A DNA stretch of 35,082 nucleotides from Seison nebaliae (Eukaryota). The stretch lies in the NCBI GenBank assembly GCA_023231475.1, contig JALJEE010001198.1:1-35082 (forward strand), given 5' to 3'. Below the pieces are notes generated by a model, which saw only the letters and a list, made by a program, of their open reading frames with translations, searched no databases and had not been told where the DNA came from. Position 1 is the first letter of the stretch. Each line of letters opens with the position of its first letter. Shown here in pieces: positions 617 to 33,716 of the stretch. Made by a program: the position numbers and the translations under genes.

Positions 617-1220
617 TTACTCGTTTTCTTCTTTTGTTCCAACTAAATAATTTTCATATTCTTTCTTCGTCAAGAAATTTAATTTATCTAAATCTTTACT
701 TTCGATTTCCACTATCCAACCTTCCTCCTCAGCAGACTTATTGATTAACGATGGATTATCTTCCAGTTGTTCATTGACAGCGGTGATTATACCGCCAACT
801 GGTGATAAAAGATCTTCCGCTGCTTTCACACTCTCGATGACTGAAATTGGAGCTGAGAGAAAGAATTGAAGTGAAGGAAAGAATTATAATGAACTTCCTT
901 CATCGATTTTCTCTGTCGCCTTGATCAACAATTCAGTGTAAACGATATCGCCCAATCCTCTCTTGGTGAGAGCGAATAAATGTGAGTGAGAGGGAAGAGA
1001 AGAGAAACTTGTGCATGATGAGTGAGACCGATGCGATAATGACCAGGCGCATCCATTTCTTTTAGCCATTCGTGACTCTTCGTATACATGACGTCTGACC
1101 ATCTGGAGATAAGAACGAGGAAATGAAATTGAAAAAACTTTGTTTGACATGGAAAGTGGATAGGAAGCAATGGATGTTCGGTTGACGAGCACCAGACCTT
1201 AATAATAAACGACTGAACAT
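617..1220 (-). CDS. GCSH: Glycine cleavage system H protein, mitochondrial (156 aa, 4 exons)
   Basis: ATG 1220. Introns 1138-1095 (GTTTTT..CAG), 1008-962 (GTTTCT..AAG), 894-853 (GTTCAT..CAG). Spliced protein: MFSRLLLRSGAR presequence, YTKSHEW, IGLTHHAQRGLGDIVY, lipoyl motif IESVKAAEDLLSPVGG, NKSAEEEGWI. Spliced length 471 nt, in frame. Confidence 0.95.
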
Positions 1221-3222
1221 TCCTCTTCGATGAGTTGATGGAGAAGATATTTATAATTCTTTGTTTTTCGAAAACGTTAAAAGAGCCAAATAATTGATAG
1301 AGAGAGTAGACAAATGAGATGGAATAATATTAATGGAATAAATGTCGAACGAATTGTTTTCCGTCAACTGTTGATTTAATGGATGGATGGAGGGATTTGA
1401 TTGATTGAATTGATTAATCAAATCCATTCGACATATCAGCTCCCAATATCATTGACGGATGAATTGGTTGGAAATGGAGAGAATTCTTATTTTCTTCCTG
1501 CTAGTTCGCTTTATGACGAGTTGAAAAAAACTTACAAATTCGAATGAATTCATTAAACTCATTCCGTAACTTTTATCCTGAGTGATAGTGGAAGGGATGA
1601 TGATTACAATAACTTTCTTTTTATCTTTCCAATCTTTCTTCCACTCACTTATTCGCATTGTTCGATTGCTCGATTGTATAACCTAACATTTACTTGAACT
1701 TACTGAATTCTTTACAGTTTTTTTTTCTTGTGACAAACTGAAAAGAAATCTGTGTACAATTCGTAGGATAGGAGCTTTAGTGATTCCTTTGAGGATATAA
1801 GACGAGAAATTATTTAAGTTTGTTAGTTAGCAAGTCACTTGAGAATGTTATTGAGAAGAGTCATTCTAAATTGATATTAATTTGTGTAGAATTCTGATGA
1901 TGGAAGAAGTAGAGTTAATTCGGGTAGTCATCTATTGTAGTTGTTTTAATGGATAATTCTCATGAATCGCATTAAAAGTTGTTTGAGATAGACGGGTAGT
2001 ATTCGAAGAGATGGGATGGGAGCACTATAACTGGTGGGAGTATAAGAGATAAAATTAAGTTTGATGATAAACTTCATCTAGCGTTAAACATGGAAGAGGT
2101 ACATCAAATTACTTAATGATTTCGGTCGTCGAAGGTTAAAAGTTTTCATTAGTATAACGAAAGGACAAGTGGTTGAGCTGGAAGGAGGAATTAATGAAAA
2201 TAAGAATATTATATGTCTCCACAAGAAGAAAGGAAGGAATTGGATGGAGGAAAGGTGAATAAGTAATGTTGTGGGGAAGAATTTGATAGCCGAAATCGAA
2301 GATGGATAATCAGTTAAATCATATTACATCGTGTAAGCATGATAATTAAATTTTGGTAGTGATGACTAAGGAAATTGGAGGGGACATTATTCATATCCTA
2401 TTTCATGTCATCATGCAAGAAGATAGAGGAGAATTTTATTAATATCTCCCTCCCCCCATCGTCATGGCGACGACGACAGCCAGAGCGATTTTAATGATAA
2501 TTTCGGATAATAATGTCGATGTTAATAATGATGATGTTGTTATTCTAATTCTGATTGATTCTTAAGGATGTTTTCATATTTTATGTTTCTTCCTCTATTT
2601 CGATCTCGTCGCGAATGGCAGTCGGGTAATTTAAGTTGTGATCGTCTATTCTCTATTCAACAATTCGGTGAGATCAATTGTTGGAATTTGGTATTGAAAT
2701 CTGATTCTTTATCAATTTCCATGTCCTCTCAATTCTTCACCATAGTGAGATGACAGGAAAGAACGAGTTGGCTCGTCGTAGTACCTGATGGGATGAATAG
2801 GAAGGAGATGGATAAATAGATATATGGATAGATAGATAGAAAGATAGATAGATAAATGTTTCAATTTGTCTAATGATAGTTAAGTACCTTTCATATTCAT
2901 TTTGAGCCCAATCTACTCATTCTCCTACTTCGTCTCGATAGTCATATATTGGTTTATCTTCCTCCTGCGAAGAATGAAACGATATGAAATGAAACATAAT
3001 GCAATGTTATGCATACTATTATGTACATCCATTAGATTAGAGAAGAGAATTAGAGATTATTTAAAATAATCATTCCATTATATTCCATTTTATTCTTAGC
3101 TATTTCATTTCATTCCCTTCTATTCTTTTTCATTTCATTCGATTCATGAATGGTTCTTCTCATTACTTAATTCGAGTTCAAGTTAATCATCTTCGTTCTA
3201 CTTATTTCATCTATACCTAAAT

Positions 3223-4527: not shown

Positions 4528-6304
4528 CGTCAGTGTGTAGAATGTGGATATTCTGGGTGCATTATGTGTGTCCATAGGAATTGGTAAGTGTTTGAGTAAA
4601 GGAACGAATCGTTGGAATATTCCATCAGAAATTGAATATATTCTTTTTGGCCTGTTTATACATTCTTGTTGAGTAGCTTCTCGTTCATGAGAGAATTATG
4701 TGATTTGCAAAATTCTTTCGGTTAATATCGAAATGCAACGGAATAGGGGAATGATGGTGACGATGATGATGATGATGACAACGATTAATAATGTAATTTC
4801 ATATAAATTGTTAACTAAAACAAAATTGTGAGGACTTTCCTTCAACTATTCATTTTGTCTGCACCAGAACAATGCTTCGTCGTCCGATTCATATGAAGAT
4901 CGGTTGGGAAAAGAGATGTCGTTTGTGTGTCAGCTCTCTCCACTAAAAGAGAAGTAATAAGTACAGGAGTAGCAGCAGTTGTAGTACATGGGAGCAATAT
5001 CATTTGTTCTTCACTGCTCACATATTTGGAGACATATGCACACATATATCAACAAAGGAAATGAGAGGAGATTCGTGCTTATGTTCAATGAGAATACTGG
5101 GGAGGAAAAACAAGGGCAATAATAATAATAATTAAGCATCTGTATATTCTGGTTTGTGTGATGGTGGATGTATGGTGAGAAGAATGGAAAGGAGAGATAT
5201 AGAATAAATATAATTTTCAATCATTCACTTATTCTTTTCCATTTATTTCTGTCAATTGTCAATTTTGCCGTCTGCTCCCTCACTATTATAATGTGTAGTT
5301 GGAATGGGCAGACACAACGGTAAATTGTGGCAATACAATTTATTTATCGGTCTAGGTGTTCTTTCTATTTATCCATTATATATTTATAGCTTATGAAATT
5401 CATTAAACATTTCTTTGCAGTTGTAATTAGTTTTAGTGGAAAATCATTTCGGATTAATTTAAACGAATATTAGTCAGAAACTAATTAACTGATTTTATGT
5501 TCGCGTTATACGATAATATATGATTACGCGTTTTGTTCTAAATAGACGACGTGAGATTATTGATTGAGAAATTGTCGATGACGATGTGGGTCTGGGGGTG
5601 GAGAAGATAGTTCTAATTGGTTTCCATTTCTCTAGCGTGCTAGATAACAGATCGTGAGCAAAATTGTTTTTTGTAGGAGTTCGTGGATGCCTGTGATGTA
5701 GGTGAGTGGATGAGAGACAGAAGAAATAGATCGGTATTATCGGAAAGATAAGATATGTTGGTGGGCAGTTAATAATCAGGAGGATGATGATGAAGCGTAA
5801 CTGATGAGACAACATCAATTAGTCGAAGAAATGTTATCATGTCGGTGAAATTGGGGAATCGGTGCGTATTGAGAAACGATGTGCCATACTCATTTATCAT
5901 TCTTAATCGACAATTACTCGAAACGAAGAAATGTTGATGATGACGATGATGGTAGGAATTGTTATCTCATCATTAAATGTTTATCATCTTGTCCAATTAC
6001 TCTACAAGAACAAGAACAAGAGAAAAAGCAAATAGGAGAAGAAAATTATGAACATCATCTTCTTATTCATCTGTCATCTGTGAAATATCATTTACCGGAA
6101 TCACTTCATTCTTCTCTCCATCGAAATAATTTAATTAATTTACATTTCAACCAACCCATTTTCAGAACTACCATCAACGCCAATATCAAGACGATTGTTG
6201 TTATTTTCACCCCAACATTTAGGGATTTACAAATTAAATATTATATATTTTATTTTTTATCTATCAATCTTCTTCTCGTCTGTTTTGTTGTTCTTGTTAA
6301 TATT

Positions 6305-6765
6305 ATGCAGTATCCATCTACCTATGACCAACAGCAACAACAACAGCAACAACCTCAGCAACCTCAACAACAACAACAACAGCAGAAAGGACAAATGCCC
6401 AATCAAATGATGTATCAATCTAACACGAATATGTTACCGAACAAAATGGGCATGCAACAACAACAACAACAGCCTATGACGAATAATATGAATTATTCGT
6501 TAATTAATCAACAACAACAACAGCAGCAACCACATCAAACACCGTTAGCATCACAACAAAAGAATCATTCATCAAACTTTTCACCACAACTCAATCAGAT
6601 GAATTCAAATATGACATCTCATCAACCACAACAGATGCAACATCAACAATTCGATAATTTACAAGGAAATATGATGATCAATGGAATGACCTCCAATTAT
6701 TCAAACGATTTTCAACAACAACAACAACATCCACAAAATCAACAACATCCACAACATCAACATCC

Positions 6766-6833
<68 letters not shown>

Positions 6834-10018: not shown

Positions 10019-13000
10019 ATGTTTTATTCGAAAATACGGGAAAATATGACGGCTATTCTCCAGAAGAAAGTGGAGAATTCAACACCAGATCAGGTTCCTG
10101 ATGACGAGAGAAAGTTTTTACTTTACTTCTTCACAACTTCTCACCACGACACCTTCTAAGTGAAGTAGACGACATTCTCAAAACGTCGAATTCCAATACC
10201 ATCTTCAAAGTTTTGTTGCGTGAAATGGCCAAAACGGGCCAACAAGATAAACAGGAAGGAACGTTGATGAGTATCCTGAAACATTCGGCAACAGATCGCC
10301 CATCGACAGAAGTGAATGCTCGCCAAAATAAAATTTCCACTGTCAAATATCGAGAGTTAGTAGTAGTGAGAAAGAATTCTTTATTTTTCCTTGTTGCTAT
10401 GGAAACGGTTAAGAAAGCGTAAATACAAATTAAAACTTTGAACAAGTTGAGGAAGGAAAGAAAATAAAAGAACTTATTAAACTGATTTCATCATATTTCT
10501 TAATCATTCTAGAATTCTCATGAAGAAATATGGAAAAGATGAGTTGGCACTCTGGCCCGAATGGACAGATAATGACATTCTCAATGAAAAATGGGAATTA
10601 TCAACCAATGGTTCCGGTACCATTCAATCGAACTATAACGTTCATGGAAACAGAGAACCGATTCTTTCAATCAGTCAATCCCATCAACAAAAATCTGGTA
10701 AGGAAACTTCCCTTGCCAAAAATAGTAGTGCTGTCAATAATAAACAAGTTCTCATTTTCCTTCCAAAATTTTCTTCTAAAAATTTCCCAATTCTAATTAT
10801 TTTCTCAATCTTCTCTTCCATCTGTCTTTCTTAAAATTATTTATATATCTAGATGGAAACGATAAATTCTGACAATCTATTCAACGATAAACGTACAAAT
10901 TTCAAAAGTTTTATCGATCGCCTTATTCCACTCCAACAATATCCGTGTTATGAAGATGTCGAAGGAATTTTATTTCTTCCAGATAATTTGGATGTATATT
11001 GTTGGATAAGAATCCAACCATTCTTATCTCAATATAATAAAGTTGTGATTTAATTCAATTTGTAAACGTCTAAAAATAGTTTTGTTTAGAGTCGAACAAT
11101 TGTCACATCGGTTGTGGAGACACAAGGTAATTATGAATGTATAAATGACGTTGACATCGACGAGAAGATTGATGAGAATTCTTTAGAGAAAACTTTCTTG
11201 AACGTACCGAAGACAAATGAGATAAAATTTGAAGAATTATTACCAATTCAATTGGGTTTGGATCGTACTGAACCTGATGTGTTTTCGAACGATTATGATG
11301 GAATTCAAATAAGTATTTCCAATAAAGATAATGAGGATGAAGGGAAAACTGGAAGTGCACCGGAAGATAATGAAATAAAAGATACGAATTCAGACACTTC
11401 CAATAACGATAAGGAATTGGAAGAATTGATTCGACAAAATAAAAATTTAATATTTGGCGAATCGGTTTATCGAGCGATATATGACTCATTTTTCCATCTC
11501 TTCCAAATGAATAAGAAAATGGAAAAGATTAATTATGAGAAGAGAATTTATTATAAAATTTTAAGTTTGGTCTCCATTGACACGACATCGCCATTGTTAG
11601 AGAATAATCTTCAAGCAAATCCAACGAACAATAATGCGAAGAATGAGAAGAATAAATCTCAGAGTCGTTTGTCAAAGAAGAAAGGTTTCCATTAATTTTC
11701 ATTTCATTACTCCTATAATAAATCTCTGCAGAAATTCGAAATTCGATCGATACATCAAACAAAAGTACAGTGTCCACTACTAGTGGGAAGGACAAGAAAA
11801 AAGATAAATCGGAAACGCAGGAACTGCAACCGAAGAAAGTGGATAATATTCAACAAAAATCAGAGAAGAAATCAATTAATATTTATCGATATCGATGGTT
11901 ACCTCATGACAACATTTTTACACCGTTGTCAATGACTAATGTTCCCACCAATACTCAGAATAATCAACAATCAAATCCATCGAACGAGAAAAAGGCACCA
12001 ACTACAGCAGCAACTACAGGCACCGGACCGACAACAGCAGCCACAACTCAAAAATCGGTCACCGGTGAAAAATCGAAATTGAAAACAGAAGAGAATTTAG
12101 AACGTTCCCAAACTGCCACAACATCTAAAGAAGAGATAGTCCGATATATTTATCCGCCGATTGTTTATACGGAGAATGTCAATCCGAATTCTCCGGTAAT
12201 TGTCAATAATCGTCATCAAATTAATATGCCGAGTACATCAGGTAAATATATTGTCAAATTATATTTTATGGGGAAATGGAGGAAAGTTTATGTGGATGAT
12301 TATATGCCAATTAATCAATCAGCGAAACATTTACTTCCCATCATTATAGGGAGGAATGAAGAGGAGACGAATAAATTATGGTCATTTCTTTTGACTAAAG
12401 CATTACTGAAAGTACTCGCATTAATCTATTCGAATGTCGATTGGTCTCATCTTCCTTACAACACCTTACATTTGACAATCATTTATTTATTAACATCATA
12501 CGAACCGGAATTGATGAATTTACAGAAGAAACAAAATTTCTTGTCAATTTTGAATCAGTTCATACCATTCTCTGATCAATATGATGATAATGAGAACGAT
12601 ATAAAGAAACCATCACCCATCATCGCTTATCATCAAGGAGAAATCCCAATGAATCTTTCGAAAAGTTGTCGTCGATCAGAAATTTTGAGATCGAAAGGAT
12701 TAAATCATCGTTTGTGTCAAACAGTTTCCGTCAATAGATATCGAAAAATATCGAAAGAGAATCGAGAACAATCTCACAATCCTCTAAAATTATCGACACC
12801 CAATTGGAAAAAGTTTCGTTTTGGCATCAAGAAATATATAATACCATTCGATGATATTATTGAGAATGATTCGGAGAATAATTTCGAAATTGAAATATCT
12901 TCTTTATTTGGCATGGAGGAAATGTTGAGTGTTGATATTGGAAAGAAGGTCGATGGAATTGCATTTCCAATGAAAAAAATTGAATTTCAAGAAAAAAATT

Positions 13001-16000
13001 TAATTAGTCAATTGAAGTATTGTGTGGAATCGAATCTTCGCCAATATGAGCCCGAACAACGGATGAATGGAGAACAATGGAAGTTGAACAATGCACCACC
13101 GTTACCTCTCCATTATTGTCTGTCTTCTGTGCAGACACAATCAGCAATAGAGATGGAAAATGAACAGAAACGATTAGAATTGTATAAGAAATGTGCGAAG
13201 AACTTAATGAAATCAGCGAAATGTAATTCAGATGATGAAAAATTATCTGGAATAAATGAAGAGAATAATAAAAAATCAGGAAAATTCACACAAAGAAATT
13301 CCGATAATATACTTCGGAGTCGAACGGTTTGGTTGAGTTTATCGGAATTTTTAATTTGTTTCAATTATTTGGTGAATTGTTGGGATACACAACAATTTGC
13401 TTATACCACTTGTGTTGATGATATTATTAAATTATCAGGAATATCCACATCGAATCTCTCGTCGAATACGAACGCTGGAAATGCGGCAAATATGGCGACG
13501 ACCACACAACCAAAAAAAGGTGGTGGTACTGCCACCACTAAAGAGAAAGGGAAATCCGTTCAAAATTCTTCAGTTCTTACAGATGTATTGAAAGCAACAT
13601 CAATGCCTCATTTTCTTCACAATCATTTCTTATCACCTGAGAATGATGAAGGAATGAAATTGAAGAAACAAATTTATAATGTACAAATCGATCCGACGAT
13701 GTACAACAAAACTTCGCAGAAAATAATTTATGGACAGAATCGACAATTAATCGCTGATATCAGTCGACGTAAATGGAATTATTCGACATTCGTCGGTGAT
13801 ATTCAAACATACGAAATTTTCATACTTATCGATTACGAATATACAAATAGAAATGAAGAACGCTCATCAAATTTCCTTCATTTTCATCTCAATTCTCTAC
13901 CCAGATGGTATGAATGGAATCATCAAAGTTCTAATCAGAAAACTATTCATCTGCCACCTCAAAATAAGATCAAGCGAAAAGTGTCACTCCAATCGACGGA
14001 TAAGAAAAAGAAGAAAGTTCAACAAAATAATCCGAGAGATAGTTCCTTCAAAAGTATTGATAATTCTGATCAACAATATGTAAACAATCAATTTCATGAT
14101 GGGAGAGTATTAAATTATTCGTTTGTTGAAATTTTCCCATATTCGTGGAAGAATCGGAATTATGAGAATAAACCAATTTATTCGACAACCATTTCACTCA
14201 TCAACAGTTTCTCCTTGCCATTTACACCCGGGTTCTATTTTGAATTGTTTACATTTCTCTAAAATTTTCTTTCTATATTTTCTAGAAGAAGAATTTTAAA
14301 AATGAAATTAAATATTCCAATTGCATTCACTTTAAGAGTCAATTCAAATAAACCATTTTTATTGGGAAATGAAGATTTCATATTAAATGCTCTCGCTCAA
14401 AAATCTTATCATTATATTTATGATTCACTCATTCTGTTCAATGCATTCCAGAAGGCAGTTCTCTCATATAAACATAGTGAACAACGGAATGATATCGAAG
14501 AATCGATCAATAATTTAACCAACATATTCTATCCACTTTCTATTCATCCATCCCCATCTTCCTCACCAATACCTTCCGCCAAATCTCATGGTATTTCTCG
14601 TGGTGCCAGTTCTACTTTAAAATTGAAACATGACAATTCATATTCACCTGCCATTTTCCAACAATATAAAACTCAACAACAAATCTTCCGATCGATGATG
14701 AATGAAAACCATCACTTATCCATCCATTTGAAGAGGAGTGAAGCAATCATTAATTTCAATCGGGCACTCTTTCGTTTCCTTCGTGATATTATTGAAGAAC
14801 ATTCGAAGAAACAAGCCACAAACACAACGAACGAATTGAATGTGAAGAAACCGGCGAACGTGAAGAATACAGCGGCAAAAGTGGAACAACAAGTTGAGAA
14901 TGAAATACAAAAATCTGAAATAACCAACATCTTTCCAAATCAAGCACAGATTGAGAGGAAGAAATTGGAATTCGCTTGGAGAAGTTTCACTTTCGATTTT
15001 GCGTCGACAGATCCATTAGAATTATTCACCGCCAATGAACGTCAGTGTTCGGCACAGTCTCATGTTGAGACGAATGAAGTTAAGAATGAAACAATGTTCA
15101 ATTCCGATTCAATTCCACAAATCACTTATTCCCTTGAAGAAGAGAACGCTGCCGTTACTGTACAGAGTGCATGGAAAGGATTTCTTGTTCGTCGGATGCA
15201 TAATTCCAGAATACCTGGTACCATTGAACATGGAATCGTTTTGGAGCAATTAATCGAATCATTAAAATTAATAAAGATCGCTCCAAAAAAGTATCAAAAT
15301 GTCGTAAAATTATTTTCATTTTATTTATCTACTTCATCTTTCTCGTCCGAAATGTTCTCTCATTCCATTTTCGAATGGAATAACATTTTCCTTTGTAATT
15401 ATGGCGGATATAGTGAAATGGAACGACAGAATGATTCGATTCATCAATTCTCGTTTAATGATGGGAAGTTATCGAGACAATCACCCTCGATCAATACGGA
15501 GACGATAAAAACGACAAATAGTAAACAATCGAAATCGAAACAGAAAAATAATCAGAAAATTCTGGAAAATGAAACAAGCAATTTCCAAGAAGGCAACAAG
15601 TTGATTGAAGGGAAATTGGAAAAAATCTTGATTATTCCTCATCTCATCTACCGGTTTCAATATCTCTCATTCTTACACCATTTCATTTAAACTTTCCATT
15701 TTTTCTTTAGCGATATCTATTTCACTTATGTCGATAGTCGATTAGATAGTCAACATTCCGAATCCGTTCTCGCTAATACGATTATTGAGCGAGCTGGTGA
15801 TATTATTGAGAAGAAGAGTTTGGGAGCAGTAGAGAAATTGAATCGACTGAATGGAACAATTCGTCAAATTTATGATCGAATGAATGAAGATAAGAAGAAA
15901 TTGAAAGTTCTTCGAATTGACGAACAACAAATCTATGTAAATTATTCTGCAAAATTCGAAGCCGACGAATTGTCTTATCAATTACATACGGATCTAGTAA

Positions 16001-18481
16001 TTGTCGATAATGATAACCATCAAATTCTCAGAAAACGGTTGGGAGAATTAGAACCCTACCACTTTCCGACAAATGCGTTTGGTTATACAATCTTAATCGT
16101 CGCTTATCAGACGTTTAATGGAAGACAACTTCAACCAATTAATCGACAGAAAGAAAATTTATCTTCCACATTGAAACCGAATGAAATAACGAAACAAAAA
16201 TCGAAACAACCAGCTAATTCTTCAACAATAAGTCAATCCAATTTACCGTCAGCCACACCACAAATACAATTAGATGAAACGAAATTAAATATCAAATGGA
16301 ATCTCCATTTCTTCTCAACTTCTCTCCGAACTATTATTCCCCGAACTTTCTACAACGAATATTTCTTTGACAATTTTAATCAGCGATTGAAAGATCTGAA
16401 ATCAAATGACACATCAGAAAATGAATCTCAACTCTTAGGAAAACTGAAGGAAATTCTCTTGTTTAGTGAACAGGAATTCTATAAATCTTATTCGAATCAA
16501 TCAGTTAATTCTAATTATCAGACTACTAATCAACCGACAACTACCACTACAACCATCAGTGGTTCAGGAGGGAATACGACAACAAATGTGAGTGCAGGAG
16601 CCACCTCTGGTTCATCATCCCAATCAGACATATGGCAACAGAAACATAATGAGCAAATGGGAATTATCGGAATAAATGAACAATCGATATTCAACCGAAT
16701 TCTTTATCAGACTAATTATTTCAATAATTTATATACCCGAAAAGAATTCACTGATTATTTCATTCCAAGACGTGCAAATAATTTGATTGTGAGATATAAT
16801 ATCTCCACCTTAAAAGACCAATTATCCACCATCTATTTCTATGCCAGCAATACGATGGCACATATACAATTATCGATTATTGATAAGGAACTAAATAAGA
16901 AAATTATCGAAGTTGACGGATTTGGCCAAGCAACAATTCCAGCAGTCATCTTCTGGAAATCGCGAACGGATATATTAATTTCCAATGAGAAGATATATAA
17001 TAACCTCAGTGAAACGAACACGAATCATGTTGAGCGTCCGGAAAAGTCACCGGTGCCGCCTGCGAAAAAAGGCTCGAAAAATGCATCAAGTAAAATGAGT
17101 AAATCATCAATGAAAAATAAAAAACCATCAATTGATGAAGACACGGTTCTTTTTTGTTTTATTTTTTGAAAAATTTAATTCCCTTTATTCAAATTTATTC
17201 ACTCGTTGTTTATATTTTGTCAGTCATCAGAATCAGAGAAGATATTGAATTTATTTCCATTTTACATGGAGAACGAGAACGAACTAAAAGAAATTTTTTC
17301 ACCACATCATTATTGGTTGGAGGTGAGAGTCCTCAATAAATCCTGGAATAAATTGAGTGAAAATCAATTGACATTTATTGATCAACAGAAAACGATAGAA
17401 AAAGAAAAGAATAAAAGTTTCCCAATTTCTTCTTTAAATTCCAATTCAATTTCAAAAATAATATTTCAATTATCAGTTTTAAAAGAAGAAGTAAAAGATG
17501 AGAAAATCAAACAAACCACATCAACATCAAGAAACCGAAGTCGAATGACTTCTCAACAGAGAGGAAACGATTTAAAATCGACAGAACAGAAAACGATCGA
17601 TGAGACGAAAGCACATTGGAAATTGATACTATTCTCTGATAAATCAGCCGAAGTTCCAATTCTTTAAAGATTCTCATTTTTTTAATCATTCTCCTTTATA
17701 GAATGATTTGACGATTGAACGTGATAATAGTACGAATGAATCGTTAGTGAATATGAAGAAAGCGTGGGAAATGAGCGAACCGGGACGATTACAAAAAGGA
17801 TTGACAACTGCCTCCCAATACACTCACCATAAACAACAATATAAGGGTGATGAAGAAAAAATTGATAATGAGGATGATGATAGTGACGATGATATTAAAC
17901 TGGTGTCAGCAGATGATGAGAAAAATTCGGAGGAGAATGTTATCGATCAAGAAATGAATGGAGATACGACACCTAAATTACCCGTTCTTTTATATCGTCC
18001 CATAAAAGAGGAGCATTATAAAAAGTTTTTCTCTTTTCTTTTCGTGCATATAAAAGAAAAATATTCGTGTGTTTGTAGAAATCGTAAAAATGTTAATTAT
18101 CCAATGACGACGGATGAAAAAGTGGGAACAATAGCCCAGTTCAAGCAGAAAAAGAATGAGATGTTGCAATACAATCAAATTTTAAAAGAAATTTTCCTCA
18201 AAGAAAAAGAGACGAATAAATCCTTTAACATTTCCATCGATCAAACAGTTGACACATCTCTACTTTTTTCTCCTTCAATTTTTTCTTTCTTTTCCTTCTT
18301 TCAGATAAGAGAAGCGAGAAAATCCTATCAATTGAAAACAGATCAACAACAAGAAATTATTAGTAAAAAATTAGCGGAATTACAGGCATTGAGTGAATCG
18401 AAACCAGCAACACCCATTGCTCCAGTGGCACCAGCAGTCATGACGAAAAATAAGGAGAAGAAAGCCTCAAAAGCTAAATGA
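10019..18481 (+). CDS. ADGB: Androglobin (calpain-like domain, circularly permuted globin, IQ motif), about 2549 aa, 13 exons
   Basis: Motifs LWPEWTDNDILNEKW, YEDVEGILFLP, SGKYIVKLYFMGKWRKVYVDDYMP...LWSFLLTKALLK, IQ motif AAVTVQSAWKGFLVRR, LVIVDNDN, KKAWEMSEPGR. Introns 10114-10160, 10356-10512, 10748-10852, 11042-11089, 11685-11731, 14232-14285, 15654-15710, 17146-17223, 17417-17476, 17653-17701, 18025-18078, 18248-18304 (all GTT..AG). Spliced length 7650 nt, in frame. The first two exons are less certain; alternative start at ATG 10520. Confidence 0.9.
10393..10406. promoter_or_regulatory. RFX X-box (GTTGCTATGGAAAC)
   Basis: 14-bp imperfect palindrome matching the X-box consensus GTTNCCATGGNAAC at all but one position. 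It ends about 114 nt upstream of ATG 10520 of a cilia-associated gene. A forkhead-like GTAAATA lies at 10419-10425. Confidence 0.7.
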
Positions 18482-18922: not shown

Positions 18923-19480
18923 ATGATGACTAATGTGAAATCTCCGAATTTTTACGAACGTCTCAATTGTAACGAATATTCCACAGTTTTCATCTCTTAT
19001 TCCGACTCTTCTAACACATAATCTTTCTTGTAGATTGAACAAATTCAAACGGAATTTCGAAGAAAAGCTGTCGACTGTCATCCTGATCGTTCCAATAAAA
19101 ATCCGGATGCCAAACAATTCCAGGAATTGGAAGAAGCGAAACGAATTCTTTGTGATGAGAAAACACGACCGATTTATGATCGATGGTTATCAAATCCTAT
19201 AAATGTGCCATGGAGTGATTTTTTGAAACAATCTGGAAATTTTTCATCATCCTTCCATTTCGCTTACACCAAACCACCAGCAGCTATTGATATTCGAGGT
19301 TAGTTAACTTTTTGAAATATTATGAAAAATATTTTATGATTTTTTGAAGGAATGGACGAATCGGTTGAATCAATTGTACAAACTGACAACGATTCGATAA
19401 TTACATTTAATGATCATCGTTATCAATGGCAACGATCAAACAGTGACATCCGTCGGAAATTTCGACGATATCAAATTTGA
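18923..19480 (+). CDS. DNAJC12: DnaJ homolog subfamily C member 12 (152 aa, 3 exons)
   Basis: Missed by the ORF track. ATG 18923; introns 18986-19033 (GTTTTC..TAG) and 19299-19349 (GTTAGT..AAG). Protein: FYERLNCNEYSTIEQIQTEFRRKAVDCHPDR...FQELEEAKRIL...YDRW, C-terminus IRRKFRRYQI* (compare DNAJC12 LRKFRNYEI). Confidence 0.92.
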
Positions 19481-19730: not shown

Positions 19731-21679
19731 TCATTTCATCATTTGTTTTTCCGATTGTTTGTTAACGGTGCCATTTATCGTCTTCTTTCCTACAACCGTC
19801 GATGATGAGACGATGTTATTGTTAGTTCCATTTTCAGTTGCCGTTTTCCCATTCGCTTTTCCATATTTGGGCATTTGGAGTGAATCGATCAATGGTTGTA
19901 CTCGATGTTCGAGTAACATGTTGTTGATTGGTGGGAGGCCGATACAAGCTCGAAATAAATTCTCCAATGCCGATTTCTGACGGAATAGAGAATTAACCAC
20001 AGGAATTCCATCAGGTGATAATGGTGCTTTCAAGAAGAGTGAAAGGAATGATAAAATTGAATGGAATGATTGAAAATTCAATTCCATCTCTTCATTGTCA
20101 GTTACTGCGATTTGTATTCTCGTGAGTAATTCGGTGACGATAATCAAATCAAGAATTAATGGAGCGGCCAATAACGAATCTTCACAAGTATTATGAATAA
20201 CGAATGTTTGATGTCCACCCATCATAATCTGACACGTATACTCATCCATAGCACGCTTAGAATCGCCCACATATGGTACATATTTAATAACAACACAATG
20301 ATCCGGTTTGTCGTTGGTCTCATACAACAATTTATTACTCTTCACCATATCATCGACGACATTCGTTTTCGAAATTTCTTTTGAACGGAATTGTTGTGGT
20401 GCACTGAGATTTTTTCCATCATTATTACCCAAATGATTATAACTGACGATGGAAACGGGTTTGATACCACATGACACTAAGAAATCAACAAGTACAGATT
20501 TCAATTTCGTTTGACCCGTTTTGAAATCATCACCAGCAATGAAAGCGTTATGCTCCTCCGCTAATTCAATGAGTCCTGGAACGAACGTATTTTGAGGAGA
20601 ACCATTAATATATGGAACATTCTCTAAAATTGCTGCCATGGCAAAAAGTGTGGAAGGAGCGATTTCTACTGAATGATCATTAATTTTCGTCTTCCTACAC
20701 ATGTCAAGGAGAGTAGAACTATGATCATTCACTCCAGGAATAATCGAAGAAAATCTCTCAGTATTCGCCGTCCACAAAACGATAATTTTATCGACTTTCT
20801 TACGAAAATCACGAATATCATTTCGAATCACTTCCACCAAATCCATGAGGAAACCATCTGTCAATTCAATAACATTATTTGCTCGATCCTCCTGATTAGC
20901 GGCTATATAATTGGGAATATAAATACTCTTTCTTGGTACCATCTCCTTCATCAATGGCGAGAGTTGTTTCCTCAATTCCGGTTCGAAAACTTTCGCTCTA
21001 ATCATAGCATCGGCTAAATTCATGTTGGAAATATCCCAACCATCAAATTCAATATCTTCACCATTCACCATCGGTAATAGTTGACGGATGGGAATGAATA
21101 TTTCATTTCCTGCTTCATCCAATCCGATAGATGTGGTGGCCGCTTGTGTATATGATCCGAACCAATTCGATTTCTCTTGACCATTTCTCGTTTCCCATTC
21201 CAATTTAAATCGATTTGCCAATACTGCTCCAGTGAGAGTGGAGCCGTTATTGCCTCCCCATCCAACTAACATCACTCCTAATTTGGGTACTGTCCGTTCT
21301 GTTCGTAATCGACATTCGATATTTTTCGGTTGAATCTAAAAATCCCAAATAATTAGTTAGATTTTGATGAGTAAACATTTTTTTTTCAAATTACACAAAA
21401 CTAATTAAGAATTCTTTTTTTCTCATCAAATTAAAAAGAAGAAATTTTGATGTTTTATCAAATTTCAAAATAATTATCTTTTAATGAAAATTTGGAAGTT
21501 TGTGAAATTTTTTAAAAATTCTAAAGAGAAACAAGAACTTTATAAGAATTTCCTATCCGATCAACAATAGATGTTTGATATTGATATTGTGAATGAATAT
21601 ACTCCTCCGTATAAACGACGTCATCTGAATCGATAATGAGTTCATTCTCCTGATGTCCATTTTCCGTCAATTGTGTCAT
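19731..21679 (-). CDS. ISYNA1: Inositol-3-phosphate synthase (581 aa, 2 exons)
   Basis: Motifs [47 protein letters not shown]. Exon 1 is 21679-21539; intron 21538-21336 (GTTCTT..TAG). Confidence 0.97.
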
Positions 21680-22779: not shown

Positions 22780-23683
22780 ATGTTGAACTCGCTCAATCGT
22801 TTCCGTCAAAAGACTTGGGATCCCATACTCATTGGAAGTCAAATTGTATGTTTACAAACAGCAACGTACACCTCCATCAGTTTCATCTTAATGATAATTA
22901 ATGCATTTAAAGGATTCACAAATAATGTCGATTATATTCTATCTACCAAAGTCTAATTGTTTCACTAATTAAATTAATCCATTTCATTATTCAGTATATT
23001 ACAACTGGTAACTTGGTAGGTAGATACATCATCATTGCTTACGTCCTCTCTTCAATCGTCAGGTTATTCTCCTTGTAATTCTCATTCAATATCTTATAAC
23101 GACTTCTTCATTCTTACACATCTCTCTCTCACTTTCTCTTCTTTCGAAAATACATTCAACATTTTTCCCAATTCTTTTCTCTCTGTTTTCTTAAAATATT
23201 TTTCGAAATTTTCAAAACACATCGGTTGATTATAGTTTTAAAGTTGAGTTGCTTAAAAAGTAATTTTATGTTTAAGGAGGCCAAAGAGTTTTAAGTTGAT
23301 ATTCTCTCAAACGTTAGAAGTGAGTGGAAGAAAGTTTGTGAGTTTTGAGGAGAAGATTAATTAGAATTATATATATGAATGGATTTCACTAAAATTGATA
23401 TATCTTCATCTTTTTTCTCTCACCAACACACGAACGATACAGTGCATTGATATTGTGGGTATTTATACAGAAAGCGAAGGAATGCCTCGATTTTGCAGCA
23501 ACATTCTTTCTTTATCATCTTATCATAACTGCAGTATATGATGGAATGTTTCCTCGTTCTCTGATTTGGTGGATCGTCAACATAATCAATCTCATCATCT
23601 CTACAATCATCGGGGAATATTTATGTATGAAAAGTGATCTGAAAGACATCCCTGTTAACCAGCCAGCAATCAGTGATGTATGA
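22780..23683 (+). CDS. SYS1: Golgi trafficking membrane protein SYS1 (159 aa, 3 exons)
   Basis: FRQKTWDPILIGSQIVCLQ, KAKECLDFAAT, FPRSLIWW, IGEYLCMKSDLKDIP. Introns 22951-22994 (GTCTAA..CAG) and 23063-23442 (GTTATT..CAG). Confidence 0.93.
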
Positions 23684-25357: not shown

Positions 25358-26025
25358 CAAATTTCTTGATGAAATTCAATTGATATATCAACCATAATAG
25401 AGTATTGAGAAGAAACCATCAAATTATCGTTACAATCTCTAAAACTCATATTTTCCTCTCTTCCATATCATTCTTCGAATAACTCTTTCGCACAAAACTT
25501 TTTAGGAACATTTCTCCCTCTTCCTATTCACACTTTATGAGACGAACAATTCTTTATTATTATTATTTATTCTATTTTAACCCCCCTTTTTTTTTTACTT
25601 ATATATTCGAACAAGAATAATTAGTGCTCTCCCGGAACTATCTTGTCGTTTTTAAAAGAAACCGTTCGTCTATGCTGTAGTGTTCGTCATCGTCAGAAAG
25701 ATAAATAAATTATATTAACTCCAAGTTTATTTAAACATCTTTATTTATTTATTTATCTATCATTTATCTACTTGTGGTGAATGAATTGAATATTATTATA
25801 ATGAATTTGATCGTTGAAAAAAGGAAATAATGTGTGATAATTCTCGGGAAACGATTGATTTTCCATCTTTTCATTAAATCATCTTTTTGGCGAGTTCATT
25901 TTTAGAATTTGATAAGAAATATTTTATTCTTTCTTTCATTAAAAAACTGTGAAATTTTGTGTCATTTTAAAAGGAAAAAATTCATTAATTTTATGGAAAT
26001 TCGACGACGTTTCGTCGTGTCCAAA

Positions 26026-27017
26026 TCAAAATGATGATTCTAAAATAATTTGTGAAGATGGTGGAGAGGAAAATGAAGGGAAAATAATATGAATATAATT
26101 TGACCATAAAATGAAATGATGATAACTTGCAGTGAAGTTGGATGAACGAAAAGATGCGAGTGAGGAACAATTTGGATCACACAAATCTTCCACAAACTCT
26201 AAACAATCCATTAAAGAATTATGATCTTTTCCCATATCTCCATAAATATATTTTATGTTTAATTTCTGTGGATTCTTCTCTTTGAATTTGGACATTAAAC
26301 ATTTTAAAATTTCTTCTCAAAAATTTCTTATGGAAATGAAGAAAAAAGAAAAGAACTTGTACAATTATCGATATCAGTTCGACTAGCACGCATTGGTTCA
26401 TAAATGAGAACGTCTTTATATCGACGAATGATTACGTTAAAATGCCAAATATCTTTACGACGGTGGAATGCTGCGAGAATACCGATATTTCCATTACGTA
26501 AAATATCTGGGAGATGAAGGATAATGGAATTGTGAAAGAAATTGGGAACTTAATGCCGCTCGATAATCACGAATACTGGCGAACGGTAATAATTTGAGGA
26601 TTTCATGAGAATATAATTTCTCCTCATTGTTAGGGTCGTATGCGAAAATGGTTTTATTTAAACGATTCTCTAAAACTAATTTCTTAAATTTCGATTTAAC
26701 CAAACTGTTATTGGACGATGAGCGCTATGGAATTGGATAAGACGGAGTGATTGAAGGACAAAGAAGATAAAACTAACACCATTCGGACATTTGAGTTCAC
26801 ACGACGCATCACAAATATCGACATGTTTCGGTTTAATTTTCATAATTAATTTTCTGATATGTTTCAACTCATCTAAAATATCTTTGAGAGATGTAAGTGA
26901 AGCACGTGATTTAGGCGTCACTTGTAATCGGGAAATTGCTTTCTCGTACCGTTCGATGATGTTGTTAATTGGTGATGATAACATATCATAATATCGTTGA
27001 CGACGATCGTCATCCAT
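26026..27017 (-). CDS. Uncharacterised protein (about 255 aa, 4-5 exons)
   Basis: ATG 27017. ORF pieces join in frame through introns 26777-26725 (GTTAGT), 26549-26507 (GTTCCC), 26356-26316 or 26313 (GTTCTT) and probably 26126-26040 (GTTATC). No family recognised. Confidence 0.65.
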
Positions 27018-27218
27018 GTTGAATGAATAATAATTATGTTGAACGAAAGAATGAAAAAGTTTGGAAAGAAAATAAAGTTTTTTTTTGAAAAAAAAATTCT
27101 TTTCCTTTTCATTTCACTTCAGTTTTACAGATTCCGCTACAGTTGTTCCCATCGAATTTTTCTCAAAAGAAAAATTGAATAAGAAAACTCTTTTCTTTCT
27201 TTCTCCTTTTTTATTTTA

Positions 27219-28439
27219 TTAAAAAAAATCAGTAGATTGATATGGAGAATTTTTTTTATGAGGATTCACTCTCCTCTCTGACGCTTCAATCAATTTCCGT
27301 TTAGGTAATCGTTTATTGAAACTTTCTTTCCAACAACGTGAAATGAATTGAGAATGATTCTCATCATTTTTCATTAACGATCTATTCAATTGATTCTCTT
27401 GTTGATCGACGATGATGTTGAAGACCTGATCCAAACATAAATGTTTCGATCCAACTCCCCATTTCACATGGAAGTCGATTGGTAATCGTTCACAATTAAT
27501 ATCTTCTTTTCTTGCTTTCGTTCTTGTTAATTTCTTATTAGCTAATTTATCTACTAAAGCGCCAATAATATAAATAGATGAATTGACAGTAGAAATAATT
27601 TGACGACTATCTGGTGAGAGATAAACTAGACGATTAATTGGAAATAATTCCAAATAAGATTTCTCCGAATGAAATAAAAGAAGATCATCTAATAGAATAT
27701 TTCTTCGAAGGAATTCTTTATAATAATCACCATTTTTCTTCATGTTCGTAAAATAGATGAGTAACGGATCATTCCTCTTCCAATTCTCTCCATAAACAAA
27801 GAGAAGTTGATCGATACAATTACGAATGTCTTGTCGTCTCATATGTTCTTGGAAGGAGAAATCGAATGCTATTATATCGATGTTATTTGAATCATAAATA
27901 AATTGATTGACGAGAGAACAGAAATAAGAACGATGTTGAAGTTTCAGATAATTTTTTGAATATTGACGGAAAGGAGTATGATATCCCGGATAGTTTGTCA
28001 AAGGAATATTCAATTTTTTCATTTCATCTCTCCGTTTAACATTCAATTTCATTCGTTCTCCAATTCTTTTCTTCTTTTCTATTTTCTCTTCCGATCGTTT
28101 CCAGAGAACACAGAGATATTTATAAAAACGTTCACGTCGTTGTTGACTATGAATTTCGATGATTTCATTCCATCGATTATTCGTTTCTACAAATTCGACG
28201 GGCGGAGCTGCTTTTCCCGTTTCTCGACATGTTCGAAGTTCTAATCGAATAACATCCTTTTGCTGATCATATTTCAAATCGGTGAACAGACCCAAATCTC
28301 CATTCAAATATTCCAATAACCATTTCTTATCAGCAGCCAATGATTGTTGAGAACGAAGTTGATGGAAATTCCAAGTTGATTGTCGAAACAATTGTGGACG
28401 TGTCAAAGTCAAGAAAGACAAGAAACACTTCTTTATCAT
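27219..28439 (-). CDS. TRMT10C: Mitochondrial RNase P protein 1 / tRNA m1R9 methyltransferase TRM10 homolog C, single exon
   Basis: Presequence-like N-terminus and basic coiled region. SPOUT TRM10 motifs LVYLSPDS, YIIGALVDK, RLPIDFHVKW, LCLDQV, LPKRK. Confidence 0.85.
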   Translation of the reverse strand: MIKKCFLSFLTLTRPQLFRQSTWNFHQLRSQQSLAADKKWLLEYLNGDLGLFTDLKYDQQKDVIRLELRTCRETGKAAPPVEFVETNNRWNEIIEIHSQQRRERFYKYLCVLWKRSEEKIEKKKRIGERMKLNVKRRDEMKKLNIPLTNYPGYHTPFRQYSKNYLKLQHRSYFCSLVNQFIYDSNNIDIIAFDFSFQEHMRRQDIRNCIDQLLFVYGENWKRNDPLLIYFTNMKKNGDYYKEFLRRNILLDDLLLFHSEKSYLELFPINRLVYLSPDSRQIISTVNSSIYIIGALVDKLANKKLTRTKARKEDINCERLPIDFHVKWGVGSKHLCLDQVFNIIVDQQENQLNRSLMKNDENHSQFISRCWKESFNKRLPKRKLIEASERRVNPHKKNSPYQSTDFF

Positions 28440-28971
28440 TTCTACGGTATAGATAAGTGGTAAAATGGACGAACTTCAGAAATTGAGTAATAACTTTAAA
28501 AATTAGCAAAATTTATTTTGAAATTTTCAAATCACATGTCAATTTATGCTTAAAATTTAAATTATTTAAATTAGAACATAATAGGAAATACTCAAAATTT
28601 TCTCGTATTTAAAGAGAGAGTTTGAGAGGAATATTTTCTAAATCCCACATTTGGAGCTTCTTCTTCAAACCGTTTTCACGATCCGTTCTCTCATGATGAA
28701 AAGTGAAAGATAAACATGAATTCTGACTAATTTCCCTGAAAAGGACAGATTTATTAATTTTCATTAAATTTCATTGTTTAACTTGTGACAACCTGTGTAT
28801 CGGAGGTGAAGGGTAGAACAAAACGATTTATATGCCGATTTCTTCAGGTGACATACTTTCCATATCGTTCAATAATATTGATCGATTTCTTTTCTTGTTT
28901 ATTTTATTCCTTATTTACATATCATATCTAGTCATCGATTAACTTATTAACATTCGATTCCATTATCTACA

Positions 28972-31900
28972 ATGGCATTCGAAGATGGACAAAATGTTTG
29001 GGTACCTGACGTTGACGATGGTTACATTTTGGGCCACATCGTTGACATCGGCGCGTCCACATTTACTATACGATCAATTAACAATCCAGAAAAAATGATT
29101 CAAGCCTCAATCGATCAAGTTTATCCCACCGAACAATATGATCATGATGTTGATGATAATTGTGCTCTCATGTTCCTGAATGAAGCAAATTTATTGAACA
29201 ATATTCGTCGTCGTTATAAACGAGATGCGATTTATGTTAATTCTCTTCTCCCTTCTTCTCCAATCGCCCAATCCATCTAGACTTACGTCGCAAACATCTT
29301 ATTGGCCATCAATCCCTATAAAGATTTGAAGAATTTGTATTCGAAAGAAACCGTCCACAAATACAAAGGCAAATCGTTAGGTGTATTGCCACCACATGTC
29401 TTCGCTATAGGTTCACATTTCTTCTATATCTCTCCGCTCTTTCTTTTCTATGTTCAATACTACCGATAAATATCATATTATTAATATAAATTAGTTAAAA
29501 AATTATTTGAAACTCAAAAGAAAAAATTTGGAGAATTACCTTTTTTTTTATTTTATATTCCTTATAAATTAAAAAAAAAGAGAAATTACAATTTAATTTT
29601 TTTTCTAGCTGACAAATCATATCGTGATATGCGAGCGTTGAAAATCAGTCAGTCGATTATCGTTAGTGGAGAATCGGGAGCTGGTAAAACAGAATCTACC
29701 AAATATATTATCCGGTTTCTTATGGAGAATTGTGGTGATCATTCTGGTTGTATCGAGAAAAGAATTGTTGAATGTTCGTTTTTTTGTCGATTTTGAAAAT
29801 TTCTTATTCTTCTTCTAGCCAATCCATTATTAGAATCGTTCGGAAATGCGAAAACGGCAAGAAACAACAATTCTTCACGTTTTGGTAAGTTTATTGAAAT
29901 TCATTTCGATAAGAAAGTTTTTAATCTTTTCTTCTGCTGCTTATCATTCTGCTTTGATCCTTTTCTTCTTCCCTTCTTTCTTCTTCCCAATTAATCCTCA
30001 TCAGTTTTCCGTTAACGGTGGCTTCATATCACATTACTTATTGGAGAAATCGAGAATATGCATGCAGTCGCCCGATGAGAGGAATTATCATATATTTTAC
30101 AGATTAATTGCTGGTGCCCAAATGGATTTGCGGAAGAAATTACATCTTACAACACCTGACGATTTTTATGTTTCTTTTCAATTTCCATTAATATTCTCAT
30201 TTCTCCTCAGTATCTCAATTCCGGTTGTACACAATATTTCATGAACGGTTCCAATAAGATTGATAAGGATCGTACAAGTATCAATTTCCAAAAATATGGT
30301 TCATTACGAGATACACAAATGAATGATTTCACTGATTTTTGGGAATGTGACAGTGCGATGAGTCAAGTTGGATTGACGGCTGATACAAAATTTCTTATTT
30401 ATCGAACTATCGCTGCTATTCTCCATTTGGGTAACATTCAATTTGATGAGAGTGATGACTCAAAAGATGGTAGTCGAATCGTTGACAATTCGAAAGAATC
30501 TTTAGAATTAACTGCACAAATGATCGATGTATCGATCGATGAATTGAAAAGTCGATTAATTTATCGAACAATCTCCTCAGGTGGAACAGAAATTCAAGTT
30601 CCCTTAAAAGTTCACGAAGCACAAAATGCGAGAGATGCTCTCGCTAAAGCGATCTATTCTCGACTCTTCAATTATTTGGTGGATATCGTTAACAAATCGA
30701 TTCCATATGACGTTTCTAATTCTTTCATCGGAATTTTGGATATTGCTGGATTCGGTTTCTCATTCTCTTCCATTTCCATCATCTAATCATTTTTCATTTA
30801 AAGAATTTTTTCAAATTAATTCCTTCGAACAATTTTGTATTAATTATTGTAATGAAAAATTACAACAATTCTTCAACGAAAGAATTTTGAAAGAAGTTTC
30901 TTCTAATTTCATTTTTAACCAATTCAACTTTCTTTTTTCTTCGAAAGGAACAAGCACTTTATGCGAAAGAAGGACTCAATGTTAAAAAGATTCATTATAT
31001 CGATAATGAAGATTGTATCGGTTTTTCTTAATATTTTTTCGAAAAATTTTTTGAAATTTTTTAAAATTATTTTTTAAGATTTAATTGAAAATCGAATTAA
31101 AGGAGTTTTCCATTTGTTGGATGAGGAAAGTAAATTACCAGCATGTCGTCCTGATCATTTCACTTCAGAAGTTCATTTGAGAAATCGAGGACATTTCAGA
31201 ATTGACGTTAATATTTTGATGATTCTCTAATTCCAAATAATTTTCTTTTGAAGTTTCCAAGAAAGTCTCGATTGAAATGCTATCGCGGATTGAGAGACGA
31301 TGAAGGATTTCTGATTCGTCATTTCGCTGGAGCTGTCGTATATCAGACACACCAATTCATAGAGAAGAATAATGATGCACTTCATCAATCCTTATTATCA
31401 TTAATTCAGGTTTTCATCTTTTTTTTGATTTTTAACAAAAAAAAATTTTTTTCAAATTTTATTATAGAAATCCAACGATGATTTCATTCAGAAATTGTTC
31501 AATGATAATGACGATAAAAAATTGACGTCCACTTATACGAACACTTTCATGACGTCGCCGGAGAAATCGTTGAAAATCGGTCGGTTGGGATTCATCAGCA
31601 TTGGATCGAAATTTCGATCTCAATTGGCGTTGTTGATGGAGAAATTGAAAACGACACGAACTAGTTTCGTCCGATGTGTCAAACCCAATAGCAAAATGGC
31701 GAGTAATGTGTTTGATGGTGGACCGGTGTTGAGTCAATTACAATGTTCGGGAATGACATCGGTGGTGAGTTTGATGCAGCAAGGTTTCCCCTCACGAACT
31801 CAATTTCGTGAATTATATGAAATGTACAAGAAGTTTATGCCAAAAAAAATGATCAAATTAGATCCAAGATTATTTTGTAAAGCGTTATTCCATGCATTGG

Positions 31901-33716
31901 GATTGAACGAGAATGATTACAAATTTGGAATTAGTAAAGTTTTTTTCCGACCGGGAAAATTTGCTGAATTTGACAAAATGCTCCAAACGGATTCAGAGGA
32001 AATTTTGCGGTTAGTTGACGCGGTTGGAAAATGGTTGAGATGTTCAAGATGGAAACGTGCACAATGGGGAGCTTTGAGTGTGATCAAATTGAAGAATAAA
32101 ATAATTTATCGAAGGAATTGTATCGTGAAATTACAAAGTGAATTTCGAGGTTATCTCGTCCGACGACGATACAAAGAACGAATTCGAATGATGAGAGAAA
32201 TTCGAATTCTTATCAATCGTGATGATGAAATGAGAAAATTATTGAAAGAGTTGGACGAGACGATTCGTTTGAAATTGTTGATGAGATTGAATTTGAGTCA
32301 AAAGAAATTAATGGAAATTGAGAATAAGGTCAAATCGGTTAATGACAAACAATTTCATCATGAAGAGATTGACGAGAGCCTATTGAAATTTCGTAAGGAG
32401 ATTAATGAGAATTTCAACGAAATTAAAGAAACGTTAGAGAAAGAGAACATTCGAAAGAAAGAAGAACGTGAAAGACTTCAAATATTGGCAATGGAAATGG
32501 AGCAAGAGAAGGAGAAACAGAGACGATTAAAAGAAGAAGAGGAAGAGAAACGAAAAGATGAACAAATGCGTCAAGAGATCGAAGAACGAAGAAAGAAAGT
32601 GGAGGAGGAATCGAGACGGATTGAAATAGAACGACAGAAAAAAGAAGAAAAACAACTCAAATTAAAAGAACAAGAGAAGTTTAAGAAAGAGGAAGAAGAT
32701 ATTGAGTGTCAGAAAGAAATTGAACAATCCAAACGAGATTTGGAAATGTCAAATCGATTAAAGAATGAATATCGAATCGAAATGGATGACCAACAAGTAA
32801 CAGGAATAACTTCTCCTTCGTCATCATCTGCACCAGTAGCCACCATCGTTGTAACGAAAGATGGTAAATATGATTTAAGTAAATTTAAATATGCCGAATT
32901 GAGAGTTACTATTAACAATTCATGTGATATCGATTTGATCAAAGCTTGTCGTCGCGAATTCCATCGACGACTACACGTCTATCACGCTTGGAAAACGAAA
33001 CATCGACGAAATAGTCTTGCGGCCAGAAATAGTCTAGTTAGTCAACAATTATTAGTTCCCAGCTCAACAAGAACTTCAAATAATAAGACGTCTTCATCTA
33101 TTGTAAATCAGTCATCGAACGACTTGAGTCAATATGACGAGAATGAATTGACGAGAGCTCCTTCTCTACTTCTGAAGGATACGTCTCAAATTAATATTGA
33201 TTTGAAAGCGGAAGGTTAACCAATATATTTCCATTTAATTTTTCATCTTCTTTTTCAGATGATTCACAAAGATACTTTCGTTTATCACACACAACGAATG
33301 ATAGTGTTTGGTATGGTCATTTCGATGGTGAATGGATCGCTAGACAAATGGATGTTTGTAAATTATATTTTAATTCAAATAATTATTTCCAAATATTTTT
33401 TCTCTATCTATTTTTGGCAGGTATTCGTTGAGGGTAAAAGACCAGCTAGACTTCTCGTTGCAGGTGTTGATGATATGTCGATGTTGGAACAAAATTTATC
33501 ATCTACATCATTAACAAAAATTCCCGTTAAATTTCTTTGGAAAACATTCTAATTTTATTTCGATTATTTTAGGGAACGGAAATATTACCATCAGTCTTCG
33601 AAGCGACATGGACACACAATGGTGGCTACAATTATTTATCGGAAAATTTTAGCAACATCTCTTCCAGATATGTCATTCGAATAATGAAGGAAAGACAACA
33701 GAACCTACGTAAATAA
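28972..33716 (+). CDS. MYO6: Unconventional myosin VI (1301 aa, 14 exons)
   Basis: [24 protein letters not shown], insert-2 [19 protein letters not shown], single IQ, E/R/K-rich [26 protein letters not shown]. Introns 29236-29280, 29411-29608, 29774-29818, 29917-30004, 30170-30210, 30755-30803, 30896-30947, 31021-31078, 31207-31253, 31410-31467, 33215-33258, 33354-33420, 33526-33572 (all GTT..AG). Spliced length 3906 nt, in frame. Confidence 0.97.

Follow-up and report, generated by a model that had tools for sequence, protein, structure and literature searches.

Introns of a Seison nebaliae contig begin almost invariably with GTT, apparently an unreported variant of animal U2 introns

Described donor classes and the Seison introns

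Few features of animal genes are as constant as a purine at the third intron position (+3) and the trade-off between G at the last exon position (-1) and G at +5; their alterations cause human disease. Metazoan 5′ splice sites (donors) form two classes, NN//GURAG and AG//GU (PMC11732430). Entamoeba, which is host-dependent and intron-poor and has a reduced gene set, has a strict signal of six bases (GUUUGU in 88-90%), in which +5G is kept and which has co-evolved with U1 (bioRxiv 10.1101/2022.06.08.495308). A second related system comprises AG//GUNNN (U5-type) donors and switches at +4 linked to METTL16 or SNRNP27K (PMC11732430, PMC10581693, PMC11347140). Here we analyze DNA of Seison nebaliae, a seisonid rotifer (Syndermata) living on Nebalia crustaceans, for which a 44-Mb assembly is available (PMC8351084). 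The window, i.e. the whole stretch analyzed, covers positions 1 to 35,082 of contig JALJEE010001198.1.

Seven genes on both strands of the window contain 37 introns, 36 of which start with GTT and one, in SYS1 (position 22951), with GTC; GTA and GTG are absent. All 37 have GT..AG ends, and their median length is 51 nucleotides (nt; range 41-380). An initial annotation, made from the sequence alone, had given the same numbers, including G at +5 in only 5 of 37 donors. We consider the pattern to be real in the window; as a form of U2 intron in an animal it is apparently unreported.

The Seison introns resemble standard metazoan U2 introns in their GT-AG ends, their YAG or AAG acceptors (TAG 16, CAG 13, AAG 8) and their positions, but not in their donors: 29 control introns of MYO6 genes mostly begin with GTA or GTG (21 and 5, against two GTT and one GTC), and none lacks both -1G and +5G, whereas both are absent from 22 of the 37 Seison donors. 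With Entamoeba Seison shares near-universal +3U, GT-AG ends, host dependence and a reduced gene set. However, Seison is an intron-rich animal whose introns are ancestral and whose signal spans three bases (T at +4 in 16/37, G at +5 in 5/37). An Entamoeba-type strict hexamer was rejected, since GTTTGT occurs in 1/37 donors, although +3U itself is found in 36/37. Seison recalls the U5-type system in that GURAG donors are lost, the exon side carries weight and METTL16 is apparently absent, while the exon end is mostly AA rather than AG, the fixed U is at +3 rather than +4, and SNRNP27 is retained. U12-type introns (donor RTATCCT, PMC3033335) were also rejected, as A is found at +3 in none of the 37 donors.

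A literature search, with most subscription papers outside its scope, found no report of GTT donors in Seison or of near-universal GTT in any animal. The accessible parts of PMC8351084, PMC12256650, PMC10125929, PMC10599564, PMC3033335, PMC3464624, PMC10639083, PMC11347168 and bioRxiv 2024.08.22.609214 hold nothing on Seison donors, and in a survey of minor introns, as far as its text was accessible, Seison is only listed in the supplement.

Placement of the junctions and the donor signal

Three NCBI proteins of S. nebaliae (SNEBB_000835, 837 and 842) matched the window, and their exact mapping gave 14 introns in MYO6, 12 in ADGB and one in INO1, all 27 being GTT..AG. Models of GCSH, DNAJ, SYS1 and ORFX were built by reading frame. 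After inspection of RNA evidence, one ORFX acceptor was corrected, one ORFX intron was added and a doubtful MYO6 intron was removed, so that 26 of the 37 final junctions are present in NCBI protein models. Counts of U1 matches and registers, background GT frequencies, avoidance tests, and the YTAAY and G-content values were obtained with an earlier 37-intron set that differs by these edits. The features are as follows (a slash marks the exon-intron boundary).

617..1220, minus: GCSH (glycine cleavage H protein), 156 amino acids (aa); Pfam GCV_H and reading-frame model
1138-1095, 1008-962, 894-853, minus: GCSH introns, all GTT, all three being gaps in the transcript table
10019..18481, plus: androglobin-like gene (ADGB), 2549 aa; NCBI protein mapped exactly to the window
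Starts 10114, 10356, 10748, 11042, 11685, 14232, 15654, 17146, 17417, 17653, 18025, 18248, plus: 12 ADGB introns, all GTT; NCBI model, homologues being too distant to fix the junctions
10695..10705, plus: canonical-looking site CTG/GTAAGG in an ADGB exon; annotated donor CAA/GTTCTC 50 nt downstream
18923..19480, plus: DnaJ-domain gene (DNAJ), 152 aa; Pfam DnaJ and reading-frame model
18986-19033, 19299-19349, plus: DNAJ introns, both GTT; reading-frame model
19731..21679, minus: INO1 (inositol-3-phosphate synthase), 581 aa; NCBI protein
21538-21336, minus: INO1 intron, GTT; transcript rows stop at 21335 and restart at 21539
22780..23683, plus: SYS1, 159 aa; Pfam SYS1 and reading-frame model
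22951-22994 (sole GTC donor) and 23063-23442 (GTT), plus: SYS1 introns; reading-frame model
26026..27017, minus: ORFX, no known family, 254 aa; transcribed and spliced according to the transcript table
26777-26725, 26549-26507, 26356-26313, 26126-26040, minus: ORFX introns, all GTT, all four being gaps in the transcript table
28972..33716, plus: myosin VI (MYO6); NCBI protein, profile test and Owenia spliced alignment
Starts 29236, 29411, 29774, 29917, 30170, 30755, 30896, 31021, 31207, 31410, 33215, 33354, 33526, plus: 13 firm MYO6 introns, all GTT
29882..29892, plus: bypassed perfect canonical donor TTG/GTAAGT (GT at 29885) in a conserved ten-residue MYO6 motif
33037..33087, plus: in-frame 51-nt GTT intron present in the NCBI model of MYO6; doubtful, not settled by homology and excluded from the count

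MYO6 junctions were pinned by homology. A profile built from 60 non-Seison MYO6 proteins was used to score every in-frame GT/GC-AG option up to 36 nt away, and the GTT donor ranked first at all 14 annotated junctions. Five junctions had no in-frame rival and seven led by at least 8.5 bits; the weakest were those of introns 33215-33258 (3.1 bits) and 33037-33087 (only 1.8 bits). Spliced alignment of Owenia MYO6, in which any GT or GC donor was permitted, recovered all 13 firm introns to the base, together with one spurious 30-nt intron within a poorly aligned stretch. The 13 MYO6 donors listed in the initial annotation are thus reproduced base for base, in agreement with the profile.

RNA evidence came from the Seison transcript-to-genome map (supplement 2 of PMC8351084, accessible in part), which holds at least 14 rows for the matching contig. 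At least eight distinct gaps (three in GCSH, one in INO1, four in ORFX), each with a single possible placement, are all GTT..AG; junctions mapping elsewhere would have spoken against the GTT claim. Seven of the eight listed gaps coincide with donors modelled before the RNA was looked at, and RNA excludes an in-phase GTA rival 6 nt upstream of the ORFX donor at 26356. None of the transcript rows listed contains a junction of MYO6, ADGB, DNAJ or SYS1.

Different transcript isoforms of GCSH (853-1138) and ORFX (26040-26777) keep differing subsets of introns, and the mapper recorded seven of the eight gaps as deletions rather than introns. Slow splicing would account for the retained introns, and a standard splice model probably fails on these donors.

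The donor signal can be written as (A)(A/G)/GTT. Its exon side, which the initial annotation had not described, has A at -2 in 27 of 37 donors (A makes up 37% of exon bases), and A or G at -1 in 19 and 11, respectively; the exon ends with AA in 16/37 and AG in 6/37. On the intron side, +4 is T, C, A or G in 16, 10, 9 and 2 donors, and +6 is T in 21 and G in one. A consensus is lacking at +4 and +5, as the initial annotation had stated; T at +4 does not exceed the intron background, and +5G is rare. None of the donors belongs to the GURAG class and six belong to AG//GU; 31/37 fall in neither published class.

Could the pattern be artefactual, produced by U-rich introns, gene prediction or an introner burst? 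Introns carry about 54% T after the donor (54% at +4 to +20), and the 26 junctions present in NCBI models derive from automated annotation. T follows 34% of exonic GTs and 54% of intron-internal GTs, but 36 GTT among 37 donors is far from expectation even for such T-richness (P = 3e-9), and the eight RNA-mapped and 13 homology-pinned junctions concur. Among gene-body GTs whose next 17 bases are as pyrimidine-rich and G-poor, the donors account for 27/52 GTT, 1/13 GTC and 0/23 GTA/GTG (P = 3e-6; some non-donors are intronic), which indicates that +3 is read specifically. Intron positions are, moreover, common to other organisms and to human MYO6 exon 9. An artefact is therefore very improbable, and within the window it is refuted. 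Introner-derived introns were rejected separately, as the positions are ancestral and no motif extends past +3 (no formal all-against-all comparison was made).

G content falls from 16.5% before the donor to 5.6% after it. The branch-point motif YTAAY occurs in 17/37 introns, against 16.0 in shuffles, with no enrichment apparent. Exonic GTA is depleted (157 against 219), and so is CTA (0.73), which points to general avoidance of TA. Weak, uncorrected signals, on which we do not rely, came from exonic A[AG]GTT (36 against 47, P = 0.03) and from GTT located up to 30 nt before a donor (8/40, P = 0.04).

Age of the introns and pairing with U1

Several MYO6 introns are old. Introns 1-4 occupy the same codon and phase in metagenome loci L012, L015, L017 and L022, where the donors are GTA or GTG in 8/8 cases. 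For introns 1-3 and 6-9 the corresponding positions are c.261, 391, 553, 1381, 1473, 1546 and 1674, which we take to be human MYO6 exon borders. Introns 4 and 5 correspond to vertebrate residues 217 and 272 and enclose a 55-aa exon; human MYO6 exon 9 comprises Ser218-Arg272 (PMC13314912), and the Seison exon has its borders. On this evidence, old introns were converted in place to GTT, which argues for a change of machinery rather than an invasion of elements.

The controls were 29 GT introns of at least 50 nt, taken from the motor domain of MYO6 at five metagenome loci, four of which group with arthropods; the five were chosen from 80 fetched loci of which 13 were aligned. No rotifer controls were found among them: the intron-bearing loci in the tree grouped with arthropods or outside animals (L022 is not in the tree).

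Duplex energies were calculated with what we take to be the canonical U1 5′ end. Seison donors (mean -2.3 kcal/mol) pair no better than 611 exonic GTs (-1.9 kcal/mol, P = 0.25), while the controls reach -6.8 kcal/mol. In MYO6 the perfect canonical site TTG/GTAAGT (-9.1 kcal/mol) lies 32 nt upstream of the used AAA/GTTTTT (-1.6 kcal/mol) and would shift the frame if used. In ADGB, CTG/GTAAGG (-8.5 kcal/mol) is passed over for CAA/GTTCTC (-1.4 kcal/mol), its non-use being according to the NCBI model. A better GTA or GTG site is close by for only 8/37 donors, mostly by one match.

The initial annotation had proposed that 5′ splice-site recognition is rewired here. That part is supported: U1 pairing does not set true donors apart from exonic GTs, strong canonical sites go unused, and the conversion of old introns took place at their ancestral positions. 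A changed rule is thus likely to govern how the splicing machinery reads intron starts. A "shifted" signal in the sense of a slid register is not supported. GTTAGT, present in a few donors, would suit canonical U1 pairing with its register shifted by +1 or bulged at +3 (GTT-NN-GT), but mean matches drop from 5.2 of 11 to 4.4 (shift) or 4.9 (bulge) and +6 is almost never G, which leaves such a register highly unlikely.

It is also conceivable that Seison has two donor classes, with GTT confined to short coding-region introns or to this region and GTA/GTG used in long or untranslated-region introns elsewhere. The sample comprises 37 introns from a single contig, and the gene-poor stretch at 2-6 kb contains canonical-looking sites (4584 and 5702 on the plus strand; AAG/GTACTT near 2888 on the minus strand). 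However, every intron longer than 70 nt (up to 380) begins with GTT, exons tolerate strong canonical sites (GTRAG is not avoided, 16 observed against 14.7 expected), and the intergenic look-alikes have no coverage among the transcript rows listed. We therefore regard two classes as unlikely.

Strong canonical donor look-alikes in non-coding DNA lie at 4584 (+), 5702 (+), 4301 (-) and 22320 (-). Positions 2713-2966 (-) contain an exon-like piece, with a pyrimidine-rich CAG acceptor, about 78 nt, AAG/GTACTT and a second CAG about 100 nt further; stops occur in all frames and none of the listed transcript rows covers it. It may be a non-coding exon that uses a GTA donor, or a chance resemblance.

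Within 14201-31000, sequencing runs X1, X2 and X5 yielded low-depth contigs whose exons are 86-91% identical to the window and whose intron sequence is replaced; from sequence comparison they likely represent a second, divergent Seison lineage. These contigs align through exons and stop at +3 (ADGB intron 12) or +4 (DNAJ intron 2). Conservation of GTT, but not of the remaining intron sequence, would produce such stops; the evidence is weak, with 40 of 105 differences listed. Sequencing-run contigs over part of the window are DNA-like, without spliced joints, and uninformative on expression.

Candidate machinery and meaning

Within the window the observations are a three-base intronic signal read at +3, ancestral introns, no consensus at +4 or +5, and a perfect canonical site that is ignored. 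As the best explanation, with about an even chance of being correct, we propose a U2 spliceosome with a changed small nuclear RNA (snRNA) base opposite +3, released +4/+5 contacts, and intron definition over short U-rich introns. Intron definition, with U-binding proteins, would locate an intron of about 50 nt that is U-rich and G-poor; it is needed whichever snRNA changed, as a three-base signal cannot select sites alone. U5 loop 1 would pair with the A-rich exon end, and an A opposite +3U, at position 6 of U1 (the Entamoeba case) or at position 44 of U6, would check that base. Release of +4A and +5G would plausibly have accompanied loss of the N6-methyladenosine of U6 (METTL16).

METTL16 methylates U6 A43, which faces +4, while +3 faces U6 G44; where it is lost, worms, plants and human cells use U5-type sites at the expense of GURAG sites, and in yeasts the loss goes with +4U (PMC11732430, PMC11347140, PMC10581693). 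The initial annotation had suggested inspecting this gene, and in the published BUSCO table (supplement of PMC12256650, accessible in part and not recomputed here) METTL16 is scored "Missing" for Seison, whereas the remaining 24 of 25 syndermatans have it, including both acanthocephalans. Of 26 spliceosome-related rows inspected, 22 are complete in Seison (PRP8, SNRNP27 and SF3B1 included), one is fragmented and three are missing (METTL16, SNRNP40 and SPF45). Searches of the accessible table turned up no row for a U1-specific protein. Absence of METTL16 would fit the lost GURAG class and the A-rich exon end.

Several points weigh against a changed snRNA base. A Rfam search of the window found no snRNA (three weak microRNA-like matches only), and the material is a single contig with a longest intron of 380 nt. 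Seison lacks 356 of 954 BUSCOs, 76 of them on its own branch (PMC12256650), so a single "Missing" call for METTL16 is weak. Absence of METTL16 would, moreover, not explain the fixed +3U, as its loss is tied to +4U and T at +4 here does not exceed background. The U1 and U6 pairing boxes are invariant in about 230 yeasts with altered donors, according to the accessible sources; in Entamoeba the U bases at +3 and +4 co-evolved with ACAAAC in U1, U6 remaining ACAGA, and in other lineages donors changed with U1 unaltered (bioRxiv 10.1101/2022.06.08.495308). Modelling a change at U1 position 6 raised mean matches from 5.2 to 6.2 of 11, i.e. by one pair, too little to select sites unaided.

Alternatively, all snRNAs may be canonical, with +3U accepted through a U6 G44-U wobble beside unmethylated A43, or through changed proteins (U1-C, LUC7, PRP8, or of the TIA-1/Nam8 type), and U1 pairing would play little or no role. 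True donors do pair with U1 no better than exonic GTs, snRNA boxes seldom change as far as the sources show, METTL16 is listed as missing (PMC12256650), and GUUUGU could pair better with an unaltered U6 ACAGA (bioRxiv 10.1101/2022.06.08.495308). A wobble is, however, a weak cause for 97% invariance while the Watson-Crick pair of +5G with C42 has been lost (5/37). We take this explanation seriously but consider it somewhat improbable.

A more far-reaching form of the proposal is rather doubtful. In it, U1 pairing would no longer choose intron starts in Seison; across the genome, at tens of thousands of ancestral introns converted in place, the GUU of a short U-rich intron would be passed to U5 and to a U6 that is changed or unmethylated.

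Some further features of the window may be mentioned. The androglobin-like protein exceeds the bird proteins found in length by about 950 aa. Four pieces of ORFX had no Pfam match, and its exon 1 had no usable ESM Atlas match. At least six assembled transcripts (25938-28637, minus) cover both ORFX and a TRMT10C-like gene (27219-28439) about 200 nt away; the joint RNA is either dicistronic (operon-like) or an assembly fusion. A glutamine-rich gene that lacks introns and weakly matches the MATH domain occupies 6303-9550 (plus). An inverted repeat at 315-428, with 44-nt arms that are 95% complementary, adjoins a fragment of an open reading frame (ORF) for a LINE (long interspersed nuclear element)-type endonuclease (1-351, minus), and a second such ORF fragment lies at 34811-35080.

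Standard aligners and gene finders may mishandle the Seison genome. A changed rule for intron starts, perhaps via an altered small RNA, would be a first for an animal, and if true, the link between METTL16 and splice sites would extend from yeasts to an animal. With +3 inverted and both Gs dropped at old introns, Seison offers a natural experiment to tell which contact (U1, U5, U6 or protein) commits the 5′ splice site and how many introns can co-evolve with one machine.

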